Shown: positions 8,601 through 51,205 of the stretch, piece after piece
How positions within the stretch are numbered: position 1 is the stretch's first letter
Layout: every line of letters begins with the position of its first letter
UHGV virus genome: UHGV-1430452
DNA from: a virus
Strand: one strand, 5' to 3'
DNA length: 64,000 bases
Notes under the pieces: generated by a model
What the model saw: the letters and a program-made list of their open reading frames with translations, nothing else
The model's database searches: none
What the model was told of the DNA's origin: nothing
Translations under genes and position numbers: made by a program

Positions 8601-9818
8601 TTCCAAAAAATAGTTTCTCAACTCGTCTTTGAATTTTGTCTTAGAAAATGGATACGGCACTTTTGCTTCCTCACAGTAGTTTTTATACATCTCCCATGCT
8701 GCTTTTAGCGTAGTACCATCTTCTTTCTTGAAGACACTGAATGAATCACATACGAAGTTATAAAAGTCATTAGAAGCCATAAGCATGTCCTTCGGAGCGT
8801 AAGTATCGTAATACTCTGGATCTTCTTTAAAGACTTGTAAACAATGATATGCGATTGCTCCCAACTCAAAATCAACCTGTTTGGTCAATCTACGATATTC
8901 TCGAATCGGTATCTTGTTTCCAGTAGGACGAACGTCAATCAAACGCCTTAGTAAACCAGACTTAGCATCAGTGATCTTAACAGGTGTGTTTGTACCCATA
9001 AATAAAAAACATTTGAATCTTGTTTCATATTGTCCTTTAAATTTTTCATTCATGGTCATTATCTCGTGTGAAATCACCGAGTTTAAGCGCGTATTATCTT
9101 CGATTTTTGATAAATCACCATCATGTTGTATCGCTACAAGAGGGTTATTCTTAAACGGTTCCAGAGCGAAAACATTATTCGGATTACCCAAAGCTTTTGC
9201 GTCAAAAGAACAACAATATCCTTCAAATAATTTCTCGATAATATTTATGATAGTTGATTTACCAGTACCACCAGCTCCGTAAAGCACCAGGAACTTTTGA
9301 AGTATTTTTGATTCCCCAGATACAACGGAGCCGATAGCCCATTCTATTTTACGTCGTTCTTCTTCGGAATATAGAGTACCGATGAGTTTATCCCATGCAG
9401 AAATATCGCCAGGTTCGAGAGGATACGGGAGTCTCTTGCTTGCGAAATTCTCTCTGCTTAATTCTGTGTTTGAAAATATAAGTTCATCATCGAGTACAGC
9501 AAAGTTATCACGCATCTGTTTCTGACAATATTTATGGAACTTATCGATTGAGCCACTGTCAGCATCCCACATATACTTAATTACAGGAGTACCTTCAAGA
9601 CGTCCTTCATTTTCAGCGACATATCTATCAAGTTCTCTATCTACAAGACGGGTTACATCGTCTTCATCTGTACTCCACATCTTTCGATCTTCATCCCAGA
9701 TAGCGTAAAAGTCCCTACCTCGAATCATGAGATCTTTAGATTTCAACATTTTGAACTTAGGAGAAACATCAACACTGCTTTTATTCGTCTTCGTTGATAC
9801 TGTCATGAAGTCCAACAT
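5592..9818 (-). CDS. fused replication protein: SF3-type P-loop helicase + AEP primase-like + family-B DNA polymerase with 3'-5' exonuclease
   Basis: Walker A LVLYGAGGTGKST; primase-like VIDFDIKD and GGGIHLHYIYNG; exo-like FYDCEVF and YCDNDV; PolB motif B KIVINSIYG; motif C HIKTDSIKI. Confidence 0.8.
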   Translation of the reverse strand: MLDFMTVSTKTNKSSVDVSPKFKMLKSKDLMIRGRDFYAIWDEDRKMWSTDEDDVTRLVDRELDRYVAENEGRLEGTPVIKYMWDADSGSIDKFHKYCQKQMRDNFAVLDDELIFSNTELSRENFASKRLPYPLEPGDISAWDKLIGTLYSEEERRKIEWAIGSVVSGESKILQKFLVLYGAGGTGKSTIINIIEKLFEGYCCSFDAKALGNPNNVFALEPFKNNPLVAIQHDGDLSKIEDNTRLNSVISHEIMTMNEKFKGQYETRFKCFLFMGTNTPVKITDAKSGLLRRLIDVRPTGNKIPIREYRRLTKQVDFELGAIAYHCLQVFKEDPEYYDTYAPKDMLMASNDFYNFVCDSFSVFKKEDGTTLKAAWEMYKNYCEEAKVPYPFSKTKFKDELRNYFLEFDEKVEKEDGSKLLSYYDGFKTDIFEDSIGGKKKVKAEKPIGDEKTESWLIFEEQESIFDKECSDCPAQYATSKETPTKPWDEVSTTLSELDTSKLHYVKVPENHVVIDFDIKDENGNKCFEKNLEAASKWPPTYAELSKSGGGIHLHYIYNGDVSELSRIFDEDIEIKVFTGKTSLRRKLTKCVNLVIRTISSGLPLKEVKNVINFDGIKNEKYLRSVLKKHLNKEIMGNTAPSIQMIKKLLDEAYESGIGYDVSDMKNAVFALAASSSNQADECLKLVNQMAFKSEEASETSNEGDTDDLVFYDCEVFPNLFLVNYKFAGEGKTVVRLINPTPAEIENLLKFKLVDFNGRKYDRHIIYARLMGYTNEEIYKLSQRIINAPKGSRDNGMFGEAYNLGYIDVYDMSTVKQSLKKWEIELGIHHQELGLPWDQPVPEELWAKVAEYCDNDVIATEAVFNARKADFVARQIQVDLVKLLHDITNVTVNDTTNTLSKRIIFGNNKKPQNVFNYRYLAEPVSSDRYDEYRIKFGDDYDFRVFDSEGLPLYRSYVPGEKLPEGYSILPFFKGYTFEFGKSTYLGEAIGEGGRVYSEPGHYGNVWDGDIASQHPHSIIFECLFGPEYTKRFEDIVKARVAIKHKDFETAGQLLGGALKPYLNEEQAADLAQALKIVINSIYGLTSAGFVNEFRDPRNKDNIVAKRGALFMTLLKREVQKRGFTVCHIKTDSIKIPDATPDIIDFVTKFGKEYGYTFETEANFEKFCLVNDAVYVARFKDGKNAGEWTATGKQFAVPYVFKTLFSKEPIELKDMCEAFSVKSALYLDMNEKLPDVSEYEKELSKLEDKYRKGKLSDTTFESECRRLNDLIAEGHDYHFVGKVGQFCPVKPGKGGGLLMREQNGKYYAATGTTGFRWLESELMMSPGNEENIDRSYYRKLVDDALETIGQYGDAEWFISDDPYVGTPPWDASDRHEPPFRDSHLPDFMNIPEGSPEEIPFDDEDVELPWN

Positions 9819-15869: not shown

Positions 15870-15958
15870 TTTTTATCTCCTTTCATGAACAGTTAAATTG
15901 TTTTTACCAAAAATCCCACTCGGGAAAATTTTGATCTTGAAAAAATAGAAATCGAAAA

Positions 15959-16030
15959 GAAACAGTGTAGGACTCGAACCCACAACCTACAGATATAAGT
16001 CTGTTGCTCTACCAATTGAGCTAACTGTTT
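15959..16030 (-). tRNA. tRNA with non-canonical 6-nt anticodon loop (anticodon unresolved; UAU or UUA are the options)
   Basis: Minus-strand fold: 7-bp acceptor AAACAGT/ACTGTTT, D-arm GCTC-AATTGGTA-GAGC, T-arm GTGGG-TTCGAGT-CCTAC; anticodon stem ACAGA/TCTGT encloses only CTTATA. Confidence 0.6.
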
Positions 16031-16080
16031 CTTCTCATAATAGCGCTTGTAAATTTCGCGAATATAGATCTTCAGAAACA

Positions 16081-24052: not shown

Positions 24053-24649
24053 ATGACAATAGGACAAAAAATAAAAGAATTACGCAATCAACTTAATATG
24101 TCGGTGGATGATCTTGCTGTGAAACTGGGTAAGAACCGTGCGACTATCTACCGCTATGAACGAGGAGATATCGAGAACCTCCCTCTCGATGTACTAGAAC
24201 CATTAGCAAATGCTCTTGAGACCACACCTGGTTATTTAATGGGATGGGAAGAAACTACGAAAAAGAAAGAGCCTTCAATTATCGATGAAGTTACCATGGG
24301 TGACGTTTTTAAAGCGTTACGTCTAGGAAGTAATTTATCGATAGAGGAATTTTCGCATGAGATTGGATTATCTGCCCAAGACATAAGCAATTATGAAGCA
24401 GGAAAGACTCCTATACCTGTAAATATAATTAATCTTGTTGCTGATTTCTTTGGCATATCAATAGCGGAAATAGTTAAGGCACACAAAAACAGCGAAAATA
24501 GAACGCCTTCTGGTTTCGAAATGAAAAAGGAACGATTTGAACGTTTTAAAGTTTGGAATAAAGAGTTTGGACGAATACATTTTACTGATGAAGAAATCAA
24601 TAAAATAATGGAATATACAAGGTTCTTACTTAGCCAAAGAAGACAGTAA
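24053..24649 (+). CDS. XRE-family repressor with two tandem HTH domains
   Basis: IKELRNQLNMSVDDLAVKLGKNRATIYRYERG and FKALRLGSNLSIEEFSHEIGLSAQDISNYEAG. Confidence 0.8.
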   Translation: MTIGQKIKELRNQLNMSVDDLAVKLGKNRATIYRYERGDIENLPLDVLEPLANALETTPGYLMGWEETTKKKEPSIIDEVTMGDVFKALRLGSNLSIEEFSHEIGLSAQDISNYEAGKTPIPVNIINLVADFFGISIAEIVKAHKNSENRTPSGFEMKKERFERFKVWNKEFGRIHFTDEEINKIMEYTRFLLSQRRQ

Positions 24650-24734
24650 GTCTACATAGGTTTACTCTATTTAAAGGAGGTGATGCCTGAATTCAGTTCA
24701 TCGTAGAATTTACATCAAAGGAAAGGTGGAACCA

Positions 24735-26312
24735 ATGACAACGTTTGATATGAACAACGCTGTAGACAATGCGTTCGGTATGGACGTATATGCTATCTAT
24801 CTTCGGAAAAGTCGAGCCGATGTAGAAGCAGAAAAACTTGGAGAAGGAGAAACACTAGCAAGGCATAGAAAGATACTAACAGAACTTGCTGCTAGAAAAG
24901 GATTGTATATCGGTAAGATTTACGAGGAAATTGTATCTGGTGAAACAATCGAAGCTAGACCTGAAATACAAAAACTGATAGAAGATTGTTATAAAGGGAA
25001 ATATAGAGGAATCCTAATAGTAGAAGTTACTCGTCTATCTCGTGGTAATCAAGGAGACGCTCAAAAAATACTCGACTGTCTCAAATATTCGAATAGAAAC
25101 AATGGTGTATTAGTTATCACTCCTACTAAGACTTATGACGTTGCACACAGCCAAGAAGACGAAGAATATATGGAGTTTGAATTGTTTATGTCTCGTCGAG
25201 AATATAAGATGATTCAAAAGCGTATGGATCGTGGCCGTAAACAAGCAGTCGTAGAAGGAAACTTCATGGGTAGTTACCGTCCCTATGGATATGACATCTT
25301 AAAAACCAAGACCGGACGAACACTTATACCGAATGAAGATGAAGCTCCTATCGTGAAAATGATTTACGAATGGACAGTTAACGATAATTTATCTCCTTTC
25401 AAGATAGCTGAGCGTTTAACTAATATGGGTGTTCCTACTTATTATGGTGAGAAGGATTGGTCTAAAGAAACAGTTAAAACCATTTTGACGAATCAGACAT
25501 ACATGGGTAAAGTTCGTTGGAATGATCGAATGACTGTTAAGACTATGGTCGACGGAGAACTTAAAGCTACACGACCTCGTTCAAATCATTCCGATCACTT
25601 CATGCTATATGATGGAAAACATATGAAACACGCACTCGTCGACGAAGAAACATTCAAAGCAGCCTCCTCTCGCTTTCATAACGATAGGACAAGATCAAAT
25701 CTAAAACTTGTTAATCCTCTTGCAGGACTTCTATTTTGTAAGAAATGTGGTAAATCTATGGGTTATCAATCATATAGACATAAGAAAAACGGACCAATGG
25801 ATCGATACAATCATAGACAGTCTGCTAATGGATGCAAGGTTAAGTCAGCAGTTGCTGAGGATGTTATAAAAGCTGTTATACATGCTTTGAAACTTTATAT
25901 AGAAGATTTCGAATTTAAGTTAGACAACACTCCAGATGTTGACGAAAATTCAATCAATACGCAGCTCGAAGCTTTACAAAAAGAAATACGAAAATCCGAA
26001 CGAAAACTTGCTAAGCTATTCGATTCTTGGGAAGATGAGAAGATAACAGATAATGAATTTGTTCAAAGGAAAGCCGTCCATAATCAGAAGATAGAAAATA
26101 TAAAGAGGCAAATGGAAGAACTCGAATATTCGATACCAGAAAGAGAAGAATATGAGGATAAAATAATATTGCTGTCTGAAGCACTTGTCGCTATCACAGA
26201 CGAATCGCTTGACGCAGATATTAAGAACGAGTATCTTAAAAGAATCATTGATAGAATAGAGTTTAGTAGAGAGAATAACTCAGAGTTTATACTAGATATA
26301 GACTTATGCTAA
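24735..26312 (+). CDS. int: large serine recombinase (integrase)
   Basis: N-terminal catalytic region YLRKSRAD...ARHRKIL; recombinase domain; zinc ribbon CKKCGKSMG...CKVKS; C-terminal coiled-coil; ~525 aa. Confidence 0.85.
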   Translation: MTTFDMNNAVDNAFGMDVYAIYLRKSRADVEAEKLGEGETLARHRKILTELAARKGLYIGKIYEEIVSGETIEARPEIQKLIEDCYKGKYRGILIVEVTRLSRGNQGDAQKILDCLKYSNRNNGVLVITPTKTYDVAHSQEDEEYMEFELFMSRREYKMIQKRMDRGRKQAVVEGNFMGSYRPYGYDILKTKTGRTLIPNEDEAPIVKMIYEWTVNDNLSPFKIAERLTNMGVPTYYGEKDWSKETVKTILTNQTYMGKVRWNDRMTVKTMVDGELKATRPRSNHSDHFMLYDGKHMKHALVDEETFKAASSRFHNDRTRSNLKLVNPLAGLLFCKKCGKSMGYQSYRHKKNGPMDRYNHRQSANGCKVKSAVAEDVIKAVIHALKLYIEDFEFKLDNTPDVDENSINTQLEALQKEIRKSERKLAKLFDSWEDEKITDNEFVQRKAVHNQKIENIKRQMEELEYSIPEREEYEDKIILLSEALVAITDESLDADIKNEYLKRIIDRIEFSRENNSEFILDIDLC

Positions 26313-26373
26313 ATGGTGGCTTTGCTGCCTGTAAGACCTGCACTAAAATGGTGTAGGTAACTTTTTCCCCGAC

Positions 26374-26421
26374 ATATATATCATGGTTGTGTTTCTTTTA
26401 TATCGCCACCATGATATATAT
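26374..26421. repeat. 14-bp perfect inverted repeat with 20-bp spacer (candidate attP core or operator)
   Basis: ATATATATCATGGT at 26374-26387 and its reverse complement ACCATGATATATAT at 26408-26421. Confidence 0.4.
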
Positions 26422-26468
26422 CACAGGGAAACTATTCTAAACGTTGATATATCAAGGAGGAGATATAC

Positions 26469-26720
26469 ATGAGAATAGTATGGAAAGACAGTGCGCCTAA
26501 AACAAAACCTTGGTTGACGTTCAAATATAGAGAACATATCGTTAGCCAATATGGAGATGGATGGATTACCGATATACCTGGTGATAACAATATCTATTTT
26601 CCGAGAGAGTGTGCTTATAATGCAATCGATAAGTCTCTAGGTGGAAAGACACGAAAAGCTAATCCTCAAAGACATAAATTAGGAATAAAAGTTATTGGTA
26701 GAAAGGACGATGTATCATGA
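26469..26720 (+). CDS. small protein, tandem paralogue 1
   Basis: 83 aa MRIVWKDS...GDNN.Y...NAID; GGAGG RBS. Confidence 0.55.
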   Translation: MRIVWKDSAPKTKPWLTFKYREHIVSQYGDGWITDIPGDNNIYFPRECAYNAIDKSLGGKTRKANPQRHKLGIKVIGRKDDVS

Positions 26721-26968
26721 GAATCGTATGGAAAGATAGTCATAAGCCAAAAGAATATGAACCTATGAAATATCGAAATATTTACATCTTCGGTACTCCT
26801 GAAGGATGGGAAGTAAATATAAAAGGAGATAATAATCTATACAAGACTCATTACTGTGCTATGAATGCGATTGATGATTACTTTGGAGATTTTGGAGAAC
26901 GTGGTACAGAAAAACGTAAACGATATGGAATACAAATAATAGGTAAGAAAAATGATGAGACTGCATGA
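26717..26968 (+). CDS. small protein, tandem paralogue 2
   Basis: 83 aa, also starts MRIVWKDS; ATGA overlap with paralogue 1. Confidence 0.55.
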   Translation: MRIVWKDSHKPKEYEPMKYRNIYIFGTPEGWEVNIKGDNNLYKTHYCAMNAIDDYFGDFGERGTEKRKRYGIQIIGKKNDETA

Positions 26969-26977
26969 ATCTCAAAA

Positions 26978-27011
26978 GCCACTTCCTTTTCTGGAGGTGG
27001 CATATTTTTAT
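26978..27011. terminator. bidirectional terminator between convergent genes
   Basis: GCCACTTCC-TTTTCT-GGAGGTGGC hairpin + ATATTTTTA. Confidence 0.5.
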
Positions 27012-27016
27012 CTAGG

Positions 27017-27568
27017 TTAGACATTTCTATTTTCGTATGACGTAAATTTTACATTTGTGTACTCGTTAACCAAAAAGCTACATGCTTCATTAACTGTTTT
27101 AACGACGGATTCCCCTTCTATATAACTCTGATAATTCCTTCTTTGATTTTCAAATTTAAGATCAGGTTCAACCATGGTATCTACACTTAACCATATTAGT
27201 TCCGTAGTATAGTCTTCGGTAAAATATCCTTTTATAAAAACCTCTTTCTTTCCAACCGTTCCGATTAGTTTTATAAACGACATATCATGCTTCGTCAGAT
27301 TAAACGCATATCTTATTCCTTTTACATATTGCCCGCCAAGTTTCCTCGACTTAATTGTTTCATAGTAATTATCTTTATTGTTGTTCTTTTTATGCCACTC
27401 ATCCGATATACAAATCCACATTAAAAGTTCGCTTAAAGTTGCAACCATGGATATGCTATTTTGTTTGTCGCTTGTGCTTAAATATTCATGAAATCTTTTA
27501 TGAGATTCTCTTAATCCATGGTTTATATACATTAGCCTAAATTCTTCGACACTATTCATTATCTGCAT
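27017..27568 (-). CDS. moron-like hypothetical protein
   Basis: 183 aa, visibly AT-rich, bracketed by terminators at 27632-27662 and 26978-27011, GGAGG RBS. Confidence 0.5.
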   Translation of the reverse strand: MQIMNSVEEFRLMYINHGLRESHKRFHEYLSTSDKQNSISMVATLSELLMWICISDEWHKKNNNKDNYYETIKSRKLGGQYVKGIRYAFNLTKHDMSFIKLIGTVGKKEVFIKGYFTEDYTTELIWLSVDTMVEPDLKFENQRRNYQSYIEGESVVKTVNEACSFLVNEYTNVKFTSYENRNV

Positions 27569-27631
27569 TCCTCCTTTTATCGTAATATTCGACCATATAG
27601 GAGAAATTTCCTTTTAACCATATGAAGAAAA

Positions 27632-27662
27632 ATAAAAGGGGCTGTTTTATTCGCCCCAATTA
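27632..27662 (-). terminator. intrinsic terminator
   Basis: GGGGC-N10-GCCCC hairpin flanked by A/T runs. Confidence 0.6.
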
Positions 27663-27664
27663 TT

Positions 27665-27973
27665 TTACATCTTGTGTGAAATCTCCTCGCAATGCTTTTC
27701 CAATGATTTGATTCGTTCTTCGTGACCCTGATTTTGAATTTTCAGCTCGTCTATTTCAGATCCATGATTCGTAACCCGAGTCTTCAAGTTATTAATCATC
27801 TCGGTCAAGAAGTTTATAGTCGCGTTGAGTTTGATTATGTTTTCGTTTAGCTTTTCGATAGGCTCATTTTTAGAATGTTCTTCCTGAGTAATATCCTTCC
27901 TCAGTTTCATATAGAAAGCGAACACTGAGCCTATGACTGTTAAGACAATGATTATAACTTGATTCTCTGCCAT
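27665..27973 (-). CDS. membrane-anchored coiled-coil protein (lysis-associated?)
   Basis: N-terminal TM helix VIIIVLTVIGSVFAFYM then coiled-coil; next to holin. Confidence 0.35.
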   Translation of the reverse strand: MAENQVIIIVLTVIGSVFAFYMKLRKDITQEEHSKNEPIEKLNENIIKLNATINFLTEMINNLKTRVTNHGSEIDELKIQNQGHEERIKSLEKHCEEISHKM

Positions 27974-27975
27974 AG

Positions 27976-28269
27976 TTATTTTTCCTTCGCTGTATTATTA
28001 TCGTCTTTCTTACCTTCTACAAATCTACTAAATCCCTGATGTAGACCTGTAGATGCCAGACCCATAACTGCACCATATACGATGGAATCGACAGAGATGC
28101 CGCTTACTGCCGTATTCAATGCTGCGCCGACAACAGCCAGGATGACTGGAATATCGTCGTTAGGGATACGTTTTAAAAAAGTCGCATGTTTGATGATATA
28201 TCCAACCACCAGACAAGCGACCATTACTACAAGTACGAAATGTTCAGTTAAAATTTTTGCGAAATCCAT
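27976..28269 (-). CDS. holin
   Basis: 97 aa with two to three TM helices and a charged C-terminal tail. Confidence 0.6.
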   Translation of the reverse strand: MDFAKILTEHFVLVVMVACLVVGYIIKHATFLKRIPNDDIPVILAVVGAALNTAVSGISVDSIVYGAVMGLASTGLHQGFSRFVEGKKDDNNTAKEK

Positions 28270-28293
28270 TTTGAATTACCTTCCTTTCTTTTA

Positions 28294-28929
28294 CTAATTA
28301 ACTTTTTCCCATCCAGCAGGATATGCCTCAGGGGAGTACACGTTGTTATCGATAAGTGAAACGTACTTCTCGTTATTGAATGTTATCTTATCTCCCTTTT
28401 TATATGCCGTCTCAGCGTTGATCGGCTGTTTAAATTCTGGATACTCAACGTTAGGATCTGAGATTTCAACATACAAGGACGGAGAAACATCCGGCTTCCA
28501 TTCTTCAGTAGATGTGAACGGATCTGACGCGACAACCTTATAGAATTTATCCTGATAGATAAAGCGATCTCCTTTGCTATATGTAACTCCCACAACATAT
28601 TCCGGATACATATATCTCATAATATAAGCATCTTTGTCAGAAGCTTGTTTAAGTGTAAGATCGAACTGCAACTCTTCAAGTTTCTTAGTTCCTTCTTCGA
28701 TAGCTGCTTCTTTTTCTTTTTCTTTCAGGATATTATTGTAATGCTCTTCGTCATAAACTAGATGGTATTTCTTATCCTCTTCGTTAAGTTTCAAAGCATA
28801 ACAATGTAATTTGGAAAGATCCACAACAGTATCATCGAGAATCGCACAAATATAATTATTGCGTAATTGACGAAGAGAAATGTTAGTTATCTCTCCATTG
28901 ACGTTTTCCGCTTCAACATAAACATTCAT
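28294..28929 (-). CDS. hypothetical protein with C-terminal YxKGD repeats
   Basis: 211 aa; YSKGDRFIYQDKFYKV and YKKGDKITFNNEKYVS repeats. Confidence 0.4.
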   Translation of the reverse strand: MNVYVEAENVNGEITNISLRQLRNNYICAILDDTVVDLSKLHCYALKLNEEDKKYHLVYDEEHYNNILKEKEKEAAIEEGTKKLEELQFDLTLKQASDKDAYIMRYMYPEYVVGVTYSKGDRFIYQDKFYKVVASDPFTSTEEWKPDVSPSLYVEISDPNVEYPEFKQPINAETAYKKGDKITFNNEKYVSLIDNNVYSPEAYPAGWEKVN

Positions 28930-49486: not shown

Positions 49487-51205
49487 TTACAGTAGCTCGT
49501 TAACTCGATCCTGAATTTTCTGAATCATGTTGTGATCGTATCCAGCTTTTGCGAGGGCATTAATTCGTGCATCTCCATTACCGTATTTTCCGGCAATGAC
49601 ATCACGGGCTACATTATCAATCACTATCTGATTTACTTTCTTCTGCACAGTGTCTGGATTATAACCAGCTTTCTTGAGAGCAGACACACGAGCATCACCA
49701 TTACCCCATTTTCCAGCTAAAACCTCTTTAGCTACTTCATCGATAGATTTAGTAGGTTTTGCAGGAGCTTTAAGTAGTTCATTCACTTTCTTCTGTACAG
49801 TGTCTGGATTATAACCAGCTTTCTTGAGAGCAGACACACGAGCATCACCATTACCCCATTTTCCAGCTAAAACCTCTTTAGCTACTTCATCGATAGATTT
49901 AGTAGGTTTTGCAGGAGCTTTAAGTAGTTCATTCACTTTCTTCTGTACAGTGTCTGGATTATAACCAGCTTTCTTGAGAGCAGACACACGAGCATCACCA
50001 TTACCCCATTTACCGGCGATTACTTCTTTAGCAATTTCATCGATAGATTTGGTCGGTTTTGGCGTAGATGTAGGTTTAGATGTTGGTGCTGGTGTGGAAG
50101 AACTTTTCGCATATTTTGGTCTAGCAAAACCACGAATCATACCCCAGCCAACCGGAATGGTACGTCTTGCTACTGCTTCTCCTCTGTTACCTTCAATCGC
50201 TGTGATTTGTCCGTTTGAAACAGATTCCACATACCCGATATGATCAGAATATCCGTCGTTTGGCTGAGTCTTATCATCCCAGTTATAAACAATTACATCA
50301 CCAGGTTTCGGAGTAATGGTGCCGTCCTCGACCCAAATGCCTTTCTGCTTAAAAATCTTAATATGTTCCTCACAACCAACTTCTGTACCGATGAGATCGA
50401 CTGCTCCGGATTTGATAGCTGCTGCTGATACTGTACAATCACACCATTCATCATTAGGTTTAATAGCGTATCCGCGAGCCAAAGGTTTGTGAGAATTATA
50501 GATGTTAAGAATCTCAATATATTTACCGTTAGCTTCAGAATAACCGAGCCAACTTCTCATAACATTAAGAACGTCCTGTGCTGTTACACCCAATTCCGTA
50601 TCCTCCTGTTTTCCGTAAAAATAGTTCATGTCGACTTTACCTTTAATACCGCCTACAGTTCCGGAACTCGTATACTGATGAACCAAACAACCGTAATCTG
50701 CTTTTCCGTTATAATCAGCGAGCCAGAATTTGTACTGTTTAATCAGATCATGATTATACCAATTTCGATAGTAGTCGATATTTGCGTAGATTCCAGCTTT
50801 GTATCCCTGAGATTCTACGTACTCACAAAAGATTCTTGTAAAGTTATTACATTCATTTTTACCAAGTCTCACACCTTTTGCAGCTGCTTTCTTGACTGTG
50901 TCATATTCGAAATCTGCGAAGATGATTGTGTTTTTATCAAGACCAGCTTTTCTAACAACATCAACACAGAATTTTGCTTCGTCAAGTGCGCCCTGTTCGT
51001 TTAAGGCATAAATAAAATGGTAAGTTCCTATAATCGGAATCTTGTTGTTTTTACACCCATTGACATACTCATAGAATTTTGAATCTACTGTCTTCCTGTA
51101 AGAAGATCTAAGAATCGCGAACTCTATTCCGGAGGACTTGACTTTAGAAAAATCTACATCTCCCTGCCAATAGCTGATATCAATTCCTTTCTTCACAATC
51201 ATCAT
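49487..51205 (-). CDS. peptidoglycan hydrolase: GH25 muramidase + CHAP-like domain + four CW_7 cell-wall-binding repeats
   Basis: GIDISYWQG GH25 N-terminus; Cys/His segment DEWCDCTVSAA...SDHIGYV...IEGN; 4x IDE(V/I)AKEV(L/I)AGKWGNGDAR(V/I)SALKKAGYNPDTVQKKVN. Confidence 0.8.
   Translation of the reverse strand: MMIVKKGIDISYWQGDVDFSKVKSSGIEFAILRSSYRKTVDSKFYEYVNGCKNNKIPIIGTYHFIYALNEQGALDEAKFCVDVVRKAGLDKNTIIFADFEYDTVKKAAAKGVRLGKNECNNFTRIFCEYVESQGYKAGIYANIDYYRNWYNHDLIKQYKFWLADYNGKADYGCLVHQYTSSGTVGGIKGKVDMNYFYGKQEDTELGVTAQDVLNVMRSWLGYSEANGKYIEILNIYNSHKPLARGYAIKPNDEWCDCTVSAAAIKSGAVDLIGTEVGCEEHIKIFKQKGIWVEDGTITPKPGDVIVYNWDDKTQPNDGYSDHIGYVESVSNGQITAIEGNRGEAVARRTIPVGWGMIRGFARPKYAKSSSTPAPTSKPTSTPKPTKSIDEIAKEVIAGKWGNGDARVSALKKAGYNPDTVQKKVNELLKAPAKPTKSIDEVAKEVLAGKWGNGDARVSALKKAGYNPDTVQKKVNELLKAPAKPTKSIDEVAKEVLAGKWGNGDARVSALKKAGYNPDTVQKKVNQIVIDNVARDVIAGKYGNGDARINALAKAGYDHNMIQKIQDRVNELL
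49530..50130. repeat. 150-bp tandem DNA repeat (about 4 copies, two identical) encoding the CW_7 repeats
   Basis: Copies starting 49681 and 49831 are identical over ~150 bp; flanking copies diverged. Confidence 0.8.

Follow-up and report, generated by a model that had tools for sequence, protein, structure and literature searches.

A moron cassette with a predicted HEPN-like product behind the late operon of the temperate phage genome UHGV-1430452

The window analysed here is a 64,000-nucleotide (nt) stretch of the virus genome UHGV-1430452, and its element of interest is an open reading frame (ORF) of 183 amino acids (aa) at 27017..27568 on the minus strand. Genome comparison shows this feature to be an autonomous accessory cassette, that is, a moron. 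The reading favoured for its product, to which a probability of roughly 45% is assigned, is that lysogens make it as a stand-alone HEPN-like RNase for abortive infection or exclusion. An earlier note on this DNA had described the same 183-aa ORF, which is found as claimed, and had guessed at superinfection exclusion or abortive infection. That guess would fit the HEPN-like fold and the residue pattern predicted for the protein.

In lambdoid phages, a moron is an autonomous unit of promoter, gene and terminator, of deviant base composition, inserted between genes. The proposal of the earlier note that the present gene is a moron is borne out by its absence from 28 relatives, a mapped insertion or deletion (indel), a predicted promoter of its own and a deviant content of guanine plus cytosine (GC). 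Phage relatives were collected through two 83-aa genes that lie next to the feature, which yielded 28 IMG/VR loci, most of them with the same serine integrase (57-93% identity) and many with a holin. Relatives of the gene are absent from all 28 (tblastn with 84 diverse family members, E <= 1e-3), and the GenBank prophage MT835495 has no homologue of the ORF either. In five of the closest gene-less loci examined (L018, L020, L026, L036 and L041), the last 83-aa gene and an XhlA-like gene converge on a single bidirectional terminator, and in L026 this terminator is 87% identical over 39 nt to positions 27628-27666 of the window, which hold the hairpin upstream of the ORF. By this comparison, the hairpin at 27632-27662 is the ancestral bidirectional terminator, also carried by gene-less relatives. 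Homology to the window ends at 26953 in L018 and L026 and at 26969 in L020. It restarts at 27628 in L026, and only inside the holin gene (about 27998-28016) in L018, L020 and L023. Against the collinear gene-less phages, the indel delimits a cassette at about 26970..27627 (minus strand), placed between the 83-aa gene and the ancestral terminator and made up of a second terminator, the ORF and a leader of 59 nt. Because gene-less relatives have one terminator at this place, the gene, its leader and the second terminator are read together as an insertion.

The same slot holds different cargo in other relatives: a 197-aa plus a 114-aa protein, a 144-aa plus a 61-aa protein, a 241-aa protein, a secreted 158-aa protein or an amidase. 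To judge from these alignments, the slot that the cassette occupies, bounded by the end of the late/lysis operon and by the genes proximal to the phage attachment site (attP), behaves as a hot spot for accessory genes. The alternative cargo, between the 83-aa gene and the holin, occupies 5636-6698 in L024, 5626-6270 in L019 and L021, 3455-4180 in L031 and 3884-4360 in L025, and it includes several membrane or coiled-coil proteins, one with a signal peptide.

Close homologues of the protein are scarce, amounting to 12 clusters among 5.8 billion proteins, all metagenomic. The gene is present in seven independent phage loci, namely the window, L009, L016, L001, L004, L005 and L010. In all seven, it converges on a serine recombinase and a helix-turn-helix (HTH) repressor, and the upstream gene varies (an RNA ligase preceded by an amidase, ORFs of unknown function or a divergent gene).

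Both hairpins that the earlier note had placed around the gene are recovered by terminator scan or RNA folding. The upstream one, at 27632..27662 on the minus strand, is the intrinsic terminator of the late operon (holin and XhlA-like gene). Its GGGGC/GCCCC stem encloses a loop of 10 nt, it has a U-tract, and its folding energy is -15 kcal/mol (z = -4.1); the consensus terminator scan missed it only on account of the loop length. The downstream hairpin, GCCACTTCC/GGAGGTGGC at 26978..27001, was found by the consensus scan and folds on both strands. Its energy is -17.6 kcal/mol on the plus strand versus -12.9 on the minus strand, where its tail reads UUUUGAGAUU. Since the plus-strand form is the stronger one, the folding points to a terminator common to the convergent ORF and 83-aa gene. 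The same hairpin stands 3' of the gene in L009 and L010, and because L010 keeps it beside a different integrase type and without 83-aa genes, this terminator travels with the gene.

The cassette is ordered as late-operon terminator, sigma-H-type promoter, Shine–Dalgarno sequence, single ORF and own terminator, and the last four elements move together into phages with unrelated neighbours. The earlier description of the gene as its own transcription unit is upheld to the extent that the flanking terminators are present and the leader holds a predicted sigma-H-type promoter. Like lambdoid morons, the cassette is present or absent among collinear relatives, has its own promoter and terminator, is low in GC and sits in a cargo slot beside the attachment site. 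Unlike them, its predicted promoter is of the sigma-H (transition-phase) type and not a housekeeping one.

The sigma-H-type promoter is predicted at 27587..27614 on the minus strand from a position weight matrix (PWM) scan and from conservation. It consists of the -35 box AAAGGAAAT (27606-27614), a 12-nt spacer and the -10 box GTCGAAT (27587-27593). The leader is conserved in the window, L009, L001 and L010 despite differing neighbours, and the conserved blocks are those of AAAGGAAAT-N12-GTCGAAT. Experimentally supported SigH promoters of C. difficile are listed in Table 3 of PMC7438776, for instance those of spo0A (..AGGAATA..GTGTCGAATAT), lplA (..AAAGGAGTT..TTGTCGAATTAT) and CD3458 (GTTAAAGGAAATT..TATCGAAT), and the -10 box of the cassette is identical to those of spo0A and lplA. 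A PWM was built from 29 C. difficile SigH promoters, and both strands of the window were scanned (about 128,000 positions). The site at 27587-27614 ranks first with 20.65 bits. The promoters of the training set have a median of 17.2 and a maximum of 21.3 bits, and the best scores in 20 shuffled windows have a mean of 16.1 and a maximum of 19.4 bits. The consensus AGGAWWW-N11-12-RNNGAAT occurs twice in the window, versus 0.87 expected. Moreover, the promoter precedes the start codon by 25-29 nt in L009, L016, L001 (also in L002 and L003) and L010, and its spacer has diverged in L009, L016, L001 and L010 with the boxes kept; altogether, it is conserved in five of the seven gene-bearing loci. The second-best site of the scan lies inside the ORF (27115-27141, minus strand, 17.9 bits), and the third at the start of the XhlA-like gene, overlapping its ribosome-binding site (27962-27988, minus strand, 17.3 bits). 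These two are probably chance matches, and the top three sites all fall within 900 bp.

A Shine–Dalgarno sequence AGGAGG is read at 27570-27575 (minus strand). The first ATG (27568) is only 1 nt away, and the ATG of Met4 (27559) 10 nt. Because of the 10-nt spacing, and because the homologue P0001 (92% identical) begins at the Met4 position, translation probably starts at Met4 and gives a product of 180 aa. The ratio of nonsynonymous to synonymous substitution rates (dN/dS) is 0.043 at a dS of 0.81 against the closest homologue, in L009, and 0.08-0.19 against more distant ones. As these values are low, the ORF is, by this measure, a real gene under strong purifying selection. The AT-richness that the earlier note had remarked on is likewise evident: the ORF has 31.7% GC versus 38.2% for the window, which places it in the 1st percentile of 552-bp windows, and the adjacent 83-aa gene is similarly low, at 32.5%.

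The earlier note had recognised no features in the protein, and sequence searches add little to this. Pfam, NCBIfam, PADLOC and PDB gave no match, whether queried with the single protein or with alignments of 13 and 84 sequences. The sole database match is phrog_30856 of PHROGs, a family of unknown function, which is also matched by 40 of 84 relatives. A profile search of 1.84 billion representatives returned 112 relatives at E <= 1e-3, nearly all of them stand-alone proteins of 150-200 aa. A broad alignment, A2, comprises 84 family members that share only 17-30% identity. No relatives came to light among 50,697 GenBank phages (tblastn with the protein and with two distant members), in GTDB genomes (pattern scans with the alignment of the family and with the integrase) or in IMG/VR (family scan). 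The protein is soluble (isoelectric point 7.0, grand average of hydropathy -0.57), with no transmembrane segment, no signal peptide and a maximal Kyte-Doolittle 19-residue mean of 1.34.

Among the 84 members, Pfam revealed no recurrent family (DUF4145 once, E 0.064) and PADLOC nothing consistent. Two candidates were considered and rejected. A PADLOC model of P2 Tin matched 2 of the 84 members with E 6e-4, and hhalign of the family profile against Tin gave a probability of 0.2%. For AbiF/Abi_2 with an RNA antitoxin, there was no Abi_2 match in Pfam and no abiF-type RNA in an Rfam scan of 26200-28400. One metagenomic member, P0046 (331 aa), carries an N-terminal fusion of 170 aa in which two hydrophobic helices are predicted; this recalls membrane-anchored HEPN effectors, and it could also be a fusion made by gene calling. 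The neighbours of distant members include a PIN toxin, an AAA_13 ATPase, a DNA methylase with a resolvase, and intact or remnant tyrosine integrases; other members are set among small unknown ORFs in islands. In the contexts compared, the family gene has no conserved neighbour.

Structure prediction, which the earlier note had suggested as a check, gave a confident model with a HEPN-like four-helix bundle. AlphaFold2 reached a predicted local distance difference test score (pLDDT) of 83.8 and a predicted template modelling score (pTM) of 0.82 with 13 sequences; with 84 sequences, it reached 93.4 and 0.89 at identical topology. The model has helices at 6-31, 38-62, 77-95, 137-150 and 155-171/182, a short one at 65-75, and a beta insert of four strands at 102-126. 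Foldseek found nothing significant in PDB or BFVD. The best BFVD match, A0A6G5YNV6 (TM-score 0.52), may be a distant family member. A clear structural or lysis homologue, which according to the earlier note would speak against its proposal, was thus not found at significance by Foldseek or by the domain searches.

The HEPN superfamily is defined by an Rx4-6H motif where helix 3 ends, the Arg being followed by a polar residue (N, D or H), and by an acidic residue on helix 2 and inserts between helices 2 and 3 (Anantharaman et al. 2013, PMC3710099). Dimers with a composite active site and RNase activity independent of metal are further marks of the superfamily. Some HEPN families have lost the Arg, and another basic residue may substitute for it (PMC3710099). 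The topology of the model agrees with this definition, in that there is an acidic residue on helix 2 and an extra helix (65-75) between helices 2 and 3. The conserved residues are Glu47, Trp51, Tyr69, Arg86, Asn90, Lys93, His94, Trp126 and Tyr146. His94 is present in 84 of 84 relatives, Asn90 in 79, Glu47 in 76, and Arg or Lys at position 86 in 73 (61 R and 12 K). Glu47 stands in the middle of helix 2, in the context Ex3W rather than Ex3[KR], and helix geometry suggests that it is close to the motif. In the window protein, the motif reads R86-Y-A-F89-N90-L-T-K93-H94, with the Asn and His in register at the end of helix 3. The model would therefore combine Glu47 of helix 2 with Arg86, Asn90, Lys93 and His94, all four at the C terminus of helix 3, in a putative active site.

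Residue 89, the position of the canonical Arg, is Arg in 27 of the 84 members, giving the canonical GLRYARNxxxH, and mostly Tyr, Phe or Trp (or N, H, Q or A) in the other 57. Lys93 is found in exactly those 57 and in none of the 27, so Arg89 and Lys93 are mutually exclusive, and in each of the 84 sequences exactly one of the two positions holds a basic residue. A rough neighbour-joining (NJ) tree built without the motif columns implies about seven Arg89/Lys93 switches by parsimony, a number that is soft because the tree is noisy. Because the exchange is strict, a basic residue beside the invariant His seems to be required, as in an active site. In the branch of the window protein, the Lys beside the His would replace the canonical HEPN Arg. 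Overall, we read the protein as HEPN-like in predicted fold and site geometry, and as a candidate member of the superfamily in the strict sense.

The same residue pattern bears on a second explanation, namely that the protein is a non-catalytic helical bundle, for instance one that binds or inhibits a protein of the host or of a phage in an anti-defence, immunity or regulatory role, whose HEPN likeness is merely that of a generic four-helix-bundle fold. We consider this unlikely. Within a family of 84 sequences at only 17-30% identity, His94 is invariant, and Asn90, Glu47, Arg86, Tyr69, Tyr146 and two Trp are nearly so; the conservation of a single basic residue next to the His is typical of an active site and not of a binding surface; and the 27 members with a textbook RNxxxH have it at the topologically correct place.

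Several known proteins offer a comparison for the HEPN-like reading. HepS, from the Gifsy-1 prophage of Salmonella, is a stand-alone prophage HEPN protein (PMC13043305). HepS has the canonical R100x4H105, whereas the window protein has Phe in place of the Arg and Lys93 beside the His. Tha-1 and Tha-2 come from the S. aureus phages 80alpha and phiNM2 (PMC11087260). Tha has 301 aa, an extra N-terminal region and a canonical RNSIMH, in contrast to 183 aa and FNLTKH in the window protein, and it has a dedicated inhibitor, Ith, in a non-contiguous operon. Butters gp57r, of a cluster N mycobacteriophage, blocks heterotypic phages and is not toxic alone (bioRxiv 10.1101/2023.01.03.522681). Like the window protein, it stands alone; it is expressed from the prophage and has a predicted HEPN RX4-6H motif. 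Unlike the window protein, it belongs to an actinobacterial host, has a canonical RDRCAH and shows no detectable relation to the window family. HepT toxins (HEPN/MNT, type VII toxin–antitoxin systems; SO_3166, 5yep, 7ae2) always pair with an adjacent MNT nucleotidyltransferase antitoxin. No MNT nucleotidyltransferase gene adjoins the gene in the window or in the 13 homologue contexts, and the window protein, unlike HepT, has a 25-residue beta insert (102-126) between helices 3 and 4.

In the favoured reading, the product would be a cytoplasmic, stand-alone member of phrog_30856 with a HEPN-like four-helix bundle. In the lysogen, host RNA polymerase with sigma-H would transcribe the gene at the transition to stationary phase or sporulation, and the protein would stay inactive, probably in dimeric or tetrameric form. 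Some component of a superinfecting phage would serve as the trigger, upon which the protein would cleave tRNA, rRNA or mRNA and the infection would be aborted. An antitoxin partner would not be needed, and the protein would be comparable to HepS, Tha and Butters gp57r, which are solo HEPN proteins of prophages.

Several points weigh against this reading. Searches of Pfam, NCBIfam, PADLOC and PDB revealed no significant profile link of the family to HEPN proteins or to defence families of any kind, and the profile similarity expected of a HEPN member is lacking: hhalign against Tha-1 gives a probability of 0.15%, with RNSIMH onto FNLTKH as the only aligned segment. The window protein departs from the Rx4-6H definition at the canonical Arg position, which is Phe89, so catalysis is not assured, and the three-dimensional register of the motif is deduced from the model and its helix positions. 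As to expression, the gene has the same orientation as the late operon, which makes late read-through possible. The sigma-H promoter is a prediction, recognised after the conserved block had been seen. L004 and L005 have no promoter of this type, and no sigma-70 consensus promoter is found 5' of the gene in the window, L010 or L001.

The points on expression would suit a role in the lytic cycle, in which a late-expressed HEPN-like nuclease or RNA-binding protein would be made by read-through of a leaky late-operon terminator and would act in host shut-off, in the exclusion of co-infecting phages or satellites, or in counter-defence. The gene does lie directly downstream of the late operon in the same orientation, a sigma-70 promoter was not detected, and in L004, only 16 nt lie between the gene and its upstream neighbour, without a separate promoter or terminator. 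However, a good terminator separates the late operon from the gene, and the gene's own sigma-H-type promoter is the best in the window and moves with it. Moreover, late read-through is impossible in L010 because the upstream gene is divergent, and many close relatives manage without the gene. A lytic role is therefore judged improbable, and expression in lysogens is preferred.

The surrounding genes are those of a large temperate siphovirus, which the 64-kb window resembles, with nearly all genes on the minus strand and a 2515-aa ORF in the tape-measure position. The host is of the low-GC Firmicute type, and the phage integrates by means of a large serine recombinase. Upstream of the cassette, on the same strand, lie tail-fibre-like proteins with collagen and Listeria-Bacteroides repeats, a CBM_5_12 protein, a holin (Phage_holin_5_2, 1.2e-11) and a 102-aa membrane/coiled-coil protein with a weak likeness to XhlA. 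Beyond the ORF, a short lysogeny unit on the plus strand is oriented towards it, with an HTH_3 repressor at 24053-24649 and a 528-aa large serine recombinase at 24726-26312, both on the plus strand. Two tandem paralogous 83-aa genes follow at 26469-26720 and 26717-26968 (plus strand). Their products are 43% identical to each other and have no match in Pfam, PHROG or PDB. The conserved motifs of the 83-aa proteins are MRIVWKDS, GW, GDNNIY and NAID, and their homologues in the 28 IMG/VR contigs lie directly 3' of the same type of serine integrase wherever the flank is present. ARAGORN additionally reports a tRNA-like gene at 15958-16031 (minus strand) with an undetermined two-base anticodon ('ta').

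The earlier note had put the gene between the lysis genes and the integration module. This placement is correct, with the amendment that the two 83-aa genes intervene before the recombinase. Regarding the lysis genes, the holin and the XhlA-like gene are indeed upstream, but the endolysin-type protein is far away: a 572-aa protein with GH25, CHAP and four CW_7 repeats, encoded at 49487-51205 (minus strand) next to the 2515-aa ORF and 22 kb from the holin, is the only recognisable enzyme of this type in the window. No Amidase_3 homologue was found in the window, and the holin cassette is without an endolysin. In the relative L001, an Amidase_3 gene stands immediately after the holin.

Such a neighbourhood might suggest that the gene itself belongs to the lysis cassette, as an endolysin, an antiholin or a lysis regulator, given that it adjoins the holin and the XhlA-like gene of a cassette lacking an endolysin. 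Of all the explanations weighed, this one is given the slightest chance. The protein has neither a signal peptide or transmembrane segment nor a fold or domain of a peptidoglycan hydrolase, L001 has both an Amidase_3 endolysin and the gene, and in L010, the gene is 4.7 kb from the holin. The window also encodes its GH25, CHAP and CW_7 enzyme elsewhere, and close relatives lyse without the gene.

The related prophage MT835495, whose host junction is preserved, helps to locate the slot. Its order is host genes, an 83-aa homologue, an XhlA-like gene, a holin and a tail fibre. The host genes encode CbiD, a MutS-like protein, a sortase and a pilin-like protein, at a GC of about 47%, and the 83-aa homologue is the outermost phage gene adjoining them. 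Because host genes lie directly beyond it, the slot is placed near a prophage end. In the window, a 24-nt inverted repeat (26364-26387 / 26408-26431; 88% complementary, 20-nt spacer) lies 50 nt past the stop codon of the integrase. L009 retains the repeat with its integrase block, and an insertion of 424 bp (a 100-aa ORF and a terminator) starts there exactly at the edge of the repeat, which is a candidate attP. The MT835495 junction has no sequence similarity to this candidate, presumably reflecting a different integrase. The Rfam scan of 26200-28400 at E <= 1 gave only sub-threshold matches to miRNA hairpins, which fall on the inverted repeat. In L001, an imperfect inverted repeat, GGTGTAACAGGAC..GTCCACTTCCACC at 8655-8697, abuts the stop codon of a 458-aa serine integrase, and the intergenic region from the family gene to this integrase is conserved in L001, L004 and L005. 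This repeat is a candidate for a second type of attP.

Proximity to the recombinase raises one more explanation, that the gene encodes the recombination directionality factor, or excisionase, of the adjacent large serine integrase. In seven of seven loci, the gene indeed lies 0.05-1.1 kb from the 3' end of a serine recombinase gene. Nevertheless, this function is very improbable and was rejected for want of co-variation with a cognate integrase: the protein is 52-66% identical across three integrase types that are themselves only 21-33% identical (repressors 21-34%), and phages with integrases 77-93% identical lack the gene. Distant members are found beside tyrosine integrases or no integrase at all. 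The place behind the late operon and the stationary-phase promoter are wrong for an early excision function, and the candidate attP lies between integrase and gene, which therefore would stand at opposite ends of the prophage. A lack of co-variation with the integrase likewise overturned the 'xis' annotation of ith-1 (PMC11087260).

Morons and solo prophage HEPN defences are already known kinds. What is new is an unannotated family, a variant NxxKH motif with a clean Arg/Lys exchange, and a predicted sigma-H promoter on the cassette. A bolder proposal joins these elements, namely an unrecognised HEPN-like branch in which the catalytic Arg has repeatedly been swapped for a Lys beside the catalytic His (NxxKH for RNxxxH), placed in this phage lineage on the host sigma-H regulon as a growth-phase-gated abortive-infection RNase. 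In its entirety, this is doubtful, a shade more so than the lytic or the non-catalytic explanation. The candidate is one that specialists would find plausible rather than startling. Should the HEPN and sigma-H readings fail, the gene remains an ordinary, well-documented moron of unknown function.

Only lately was it shown that stand-alone prophage HEPN proteins such as HepS and Tha can act on their own as both sensor and effector in abortive infection. The present family is missed by defence-system annotation because Pfam, NCBIfam and PADLOC do not detect it. The cassette is small, monogenic and cleanly bounded, and naturally gene-less phages are available for comparison, which makes it an easy experimental target. 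Additionally, the strict Arg89/Lys93 exchange provides a direct test of how far a HEPN active site tolerates a moved basic residue. If the promoter prediction is true, a moron with a sigma-H promoter would represent a phage gene that a developmental sigma factor of the host controls in gut Firmicutes. In the bolder proposal, the prophage would arm its host with the RNase specifically at the entry into stationary phase or sporulation, and this defence could protect the sporulating lysogen.

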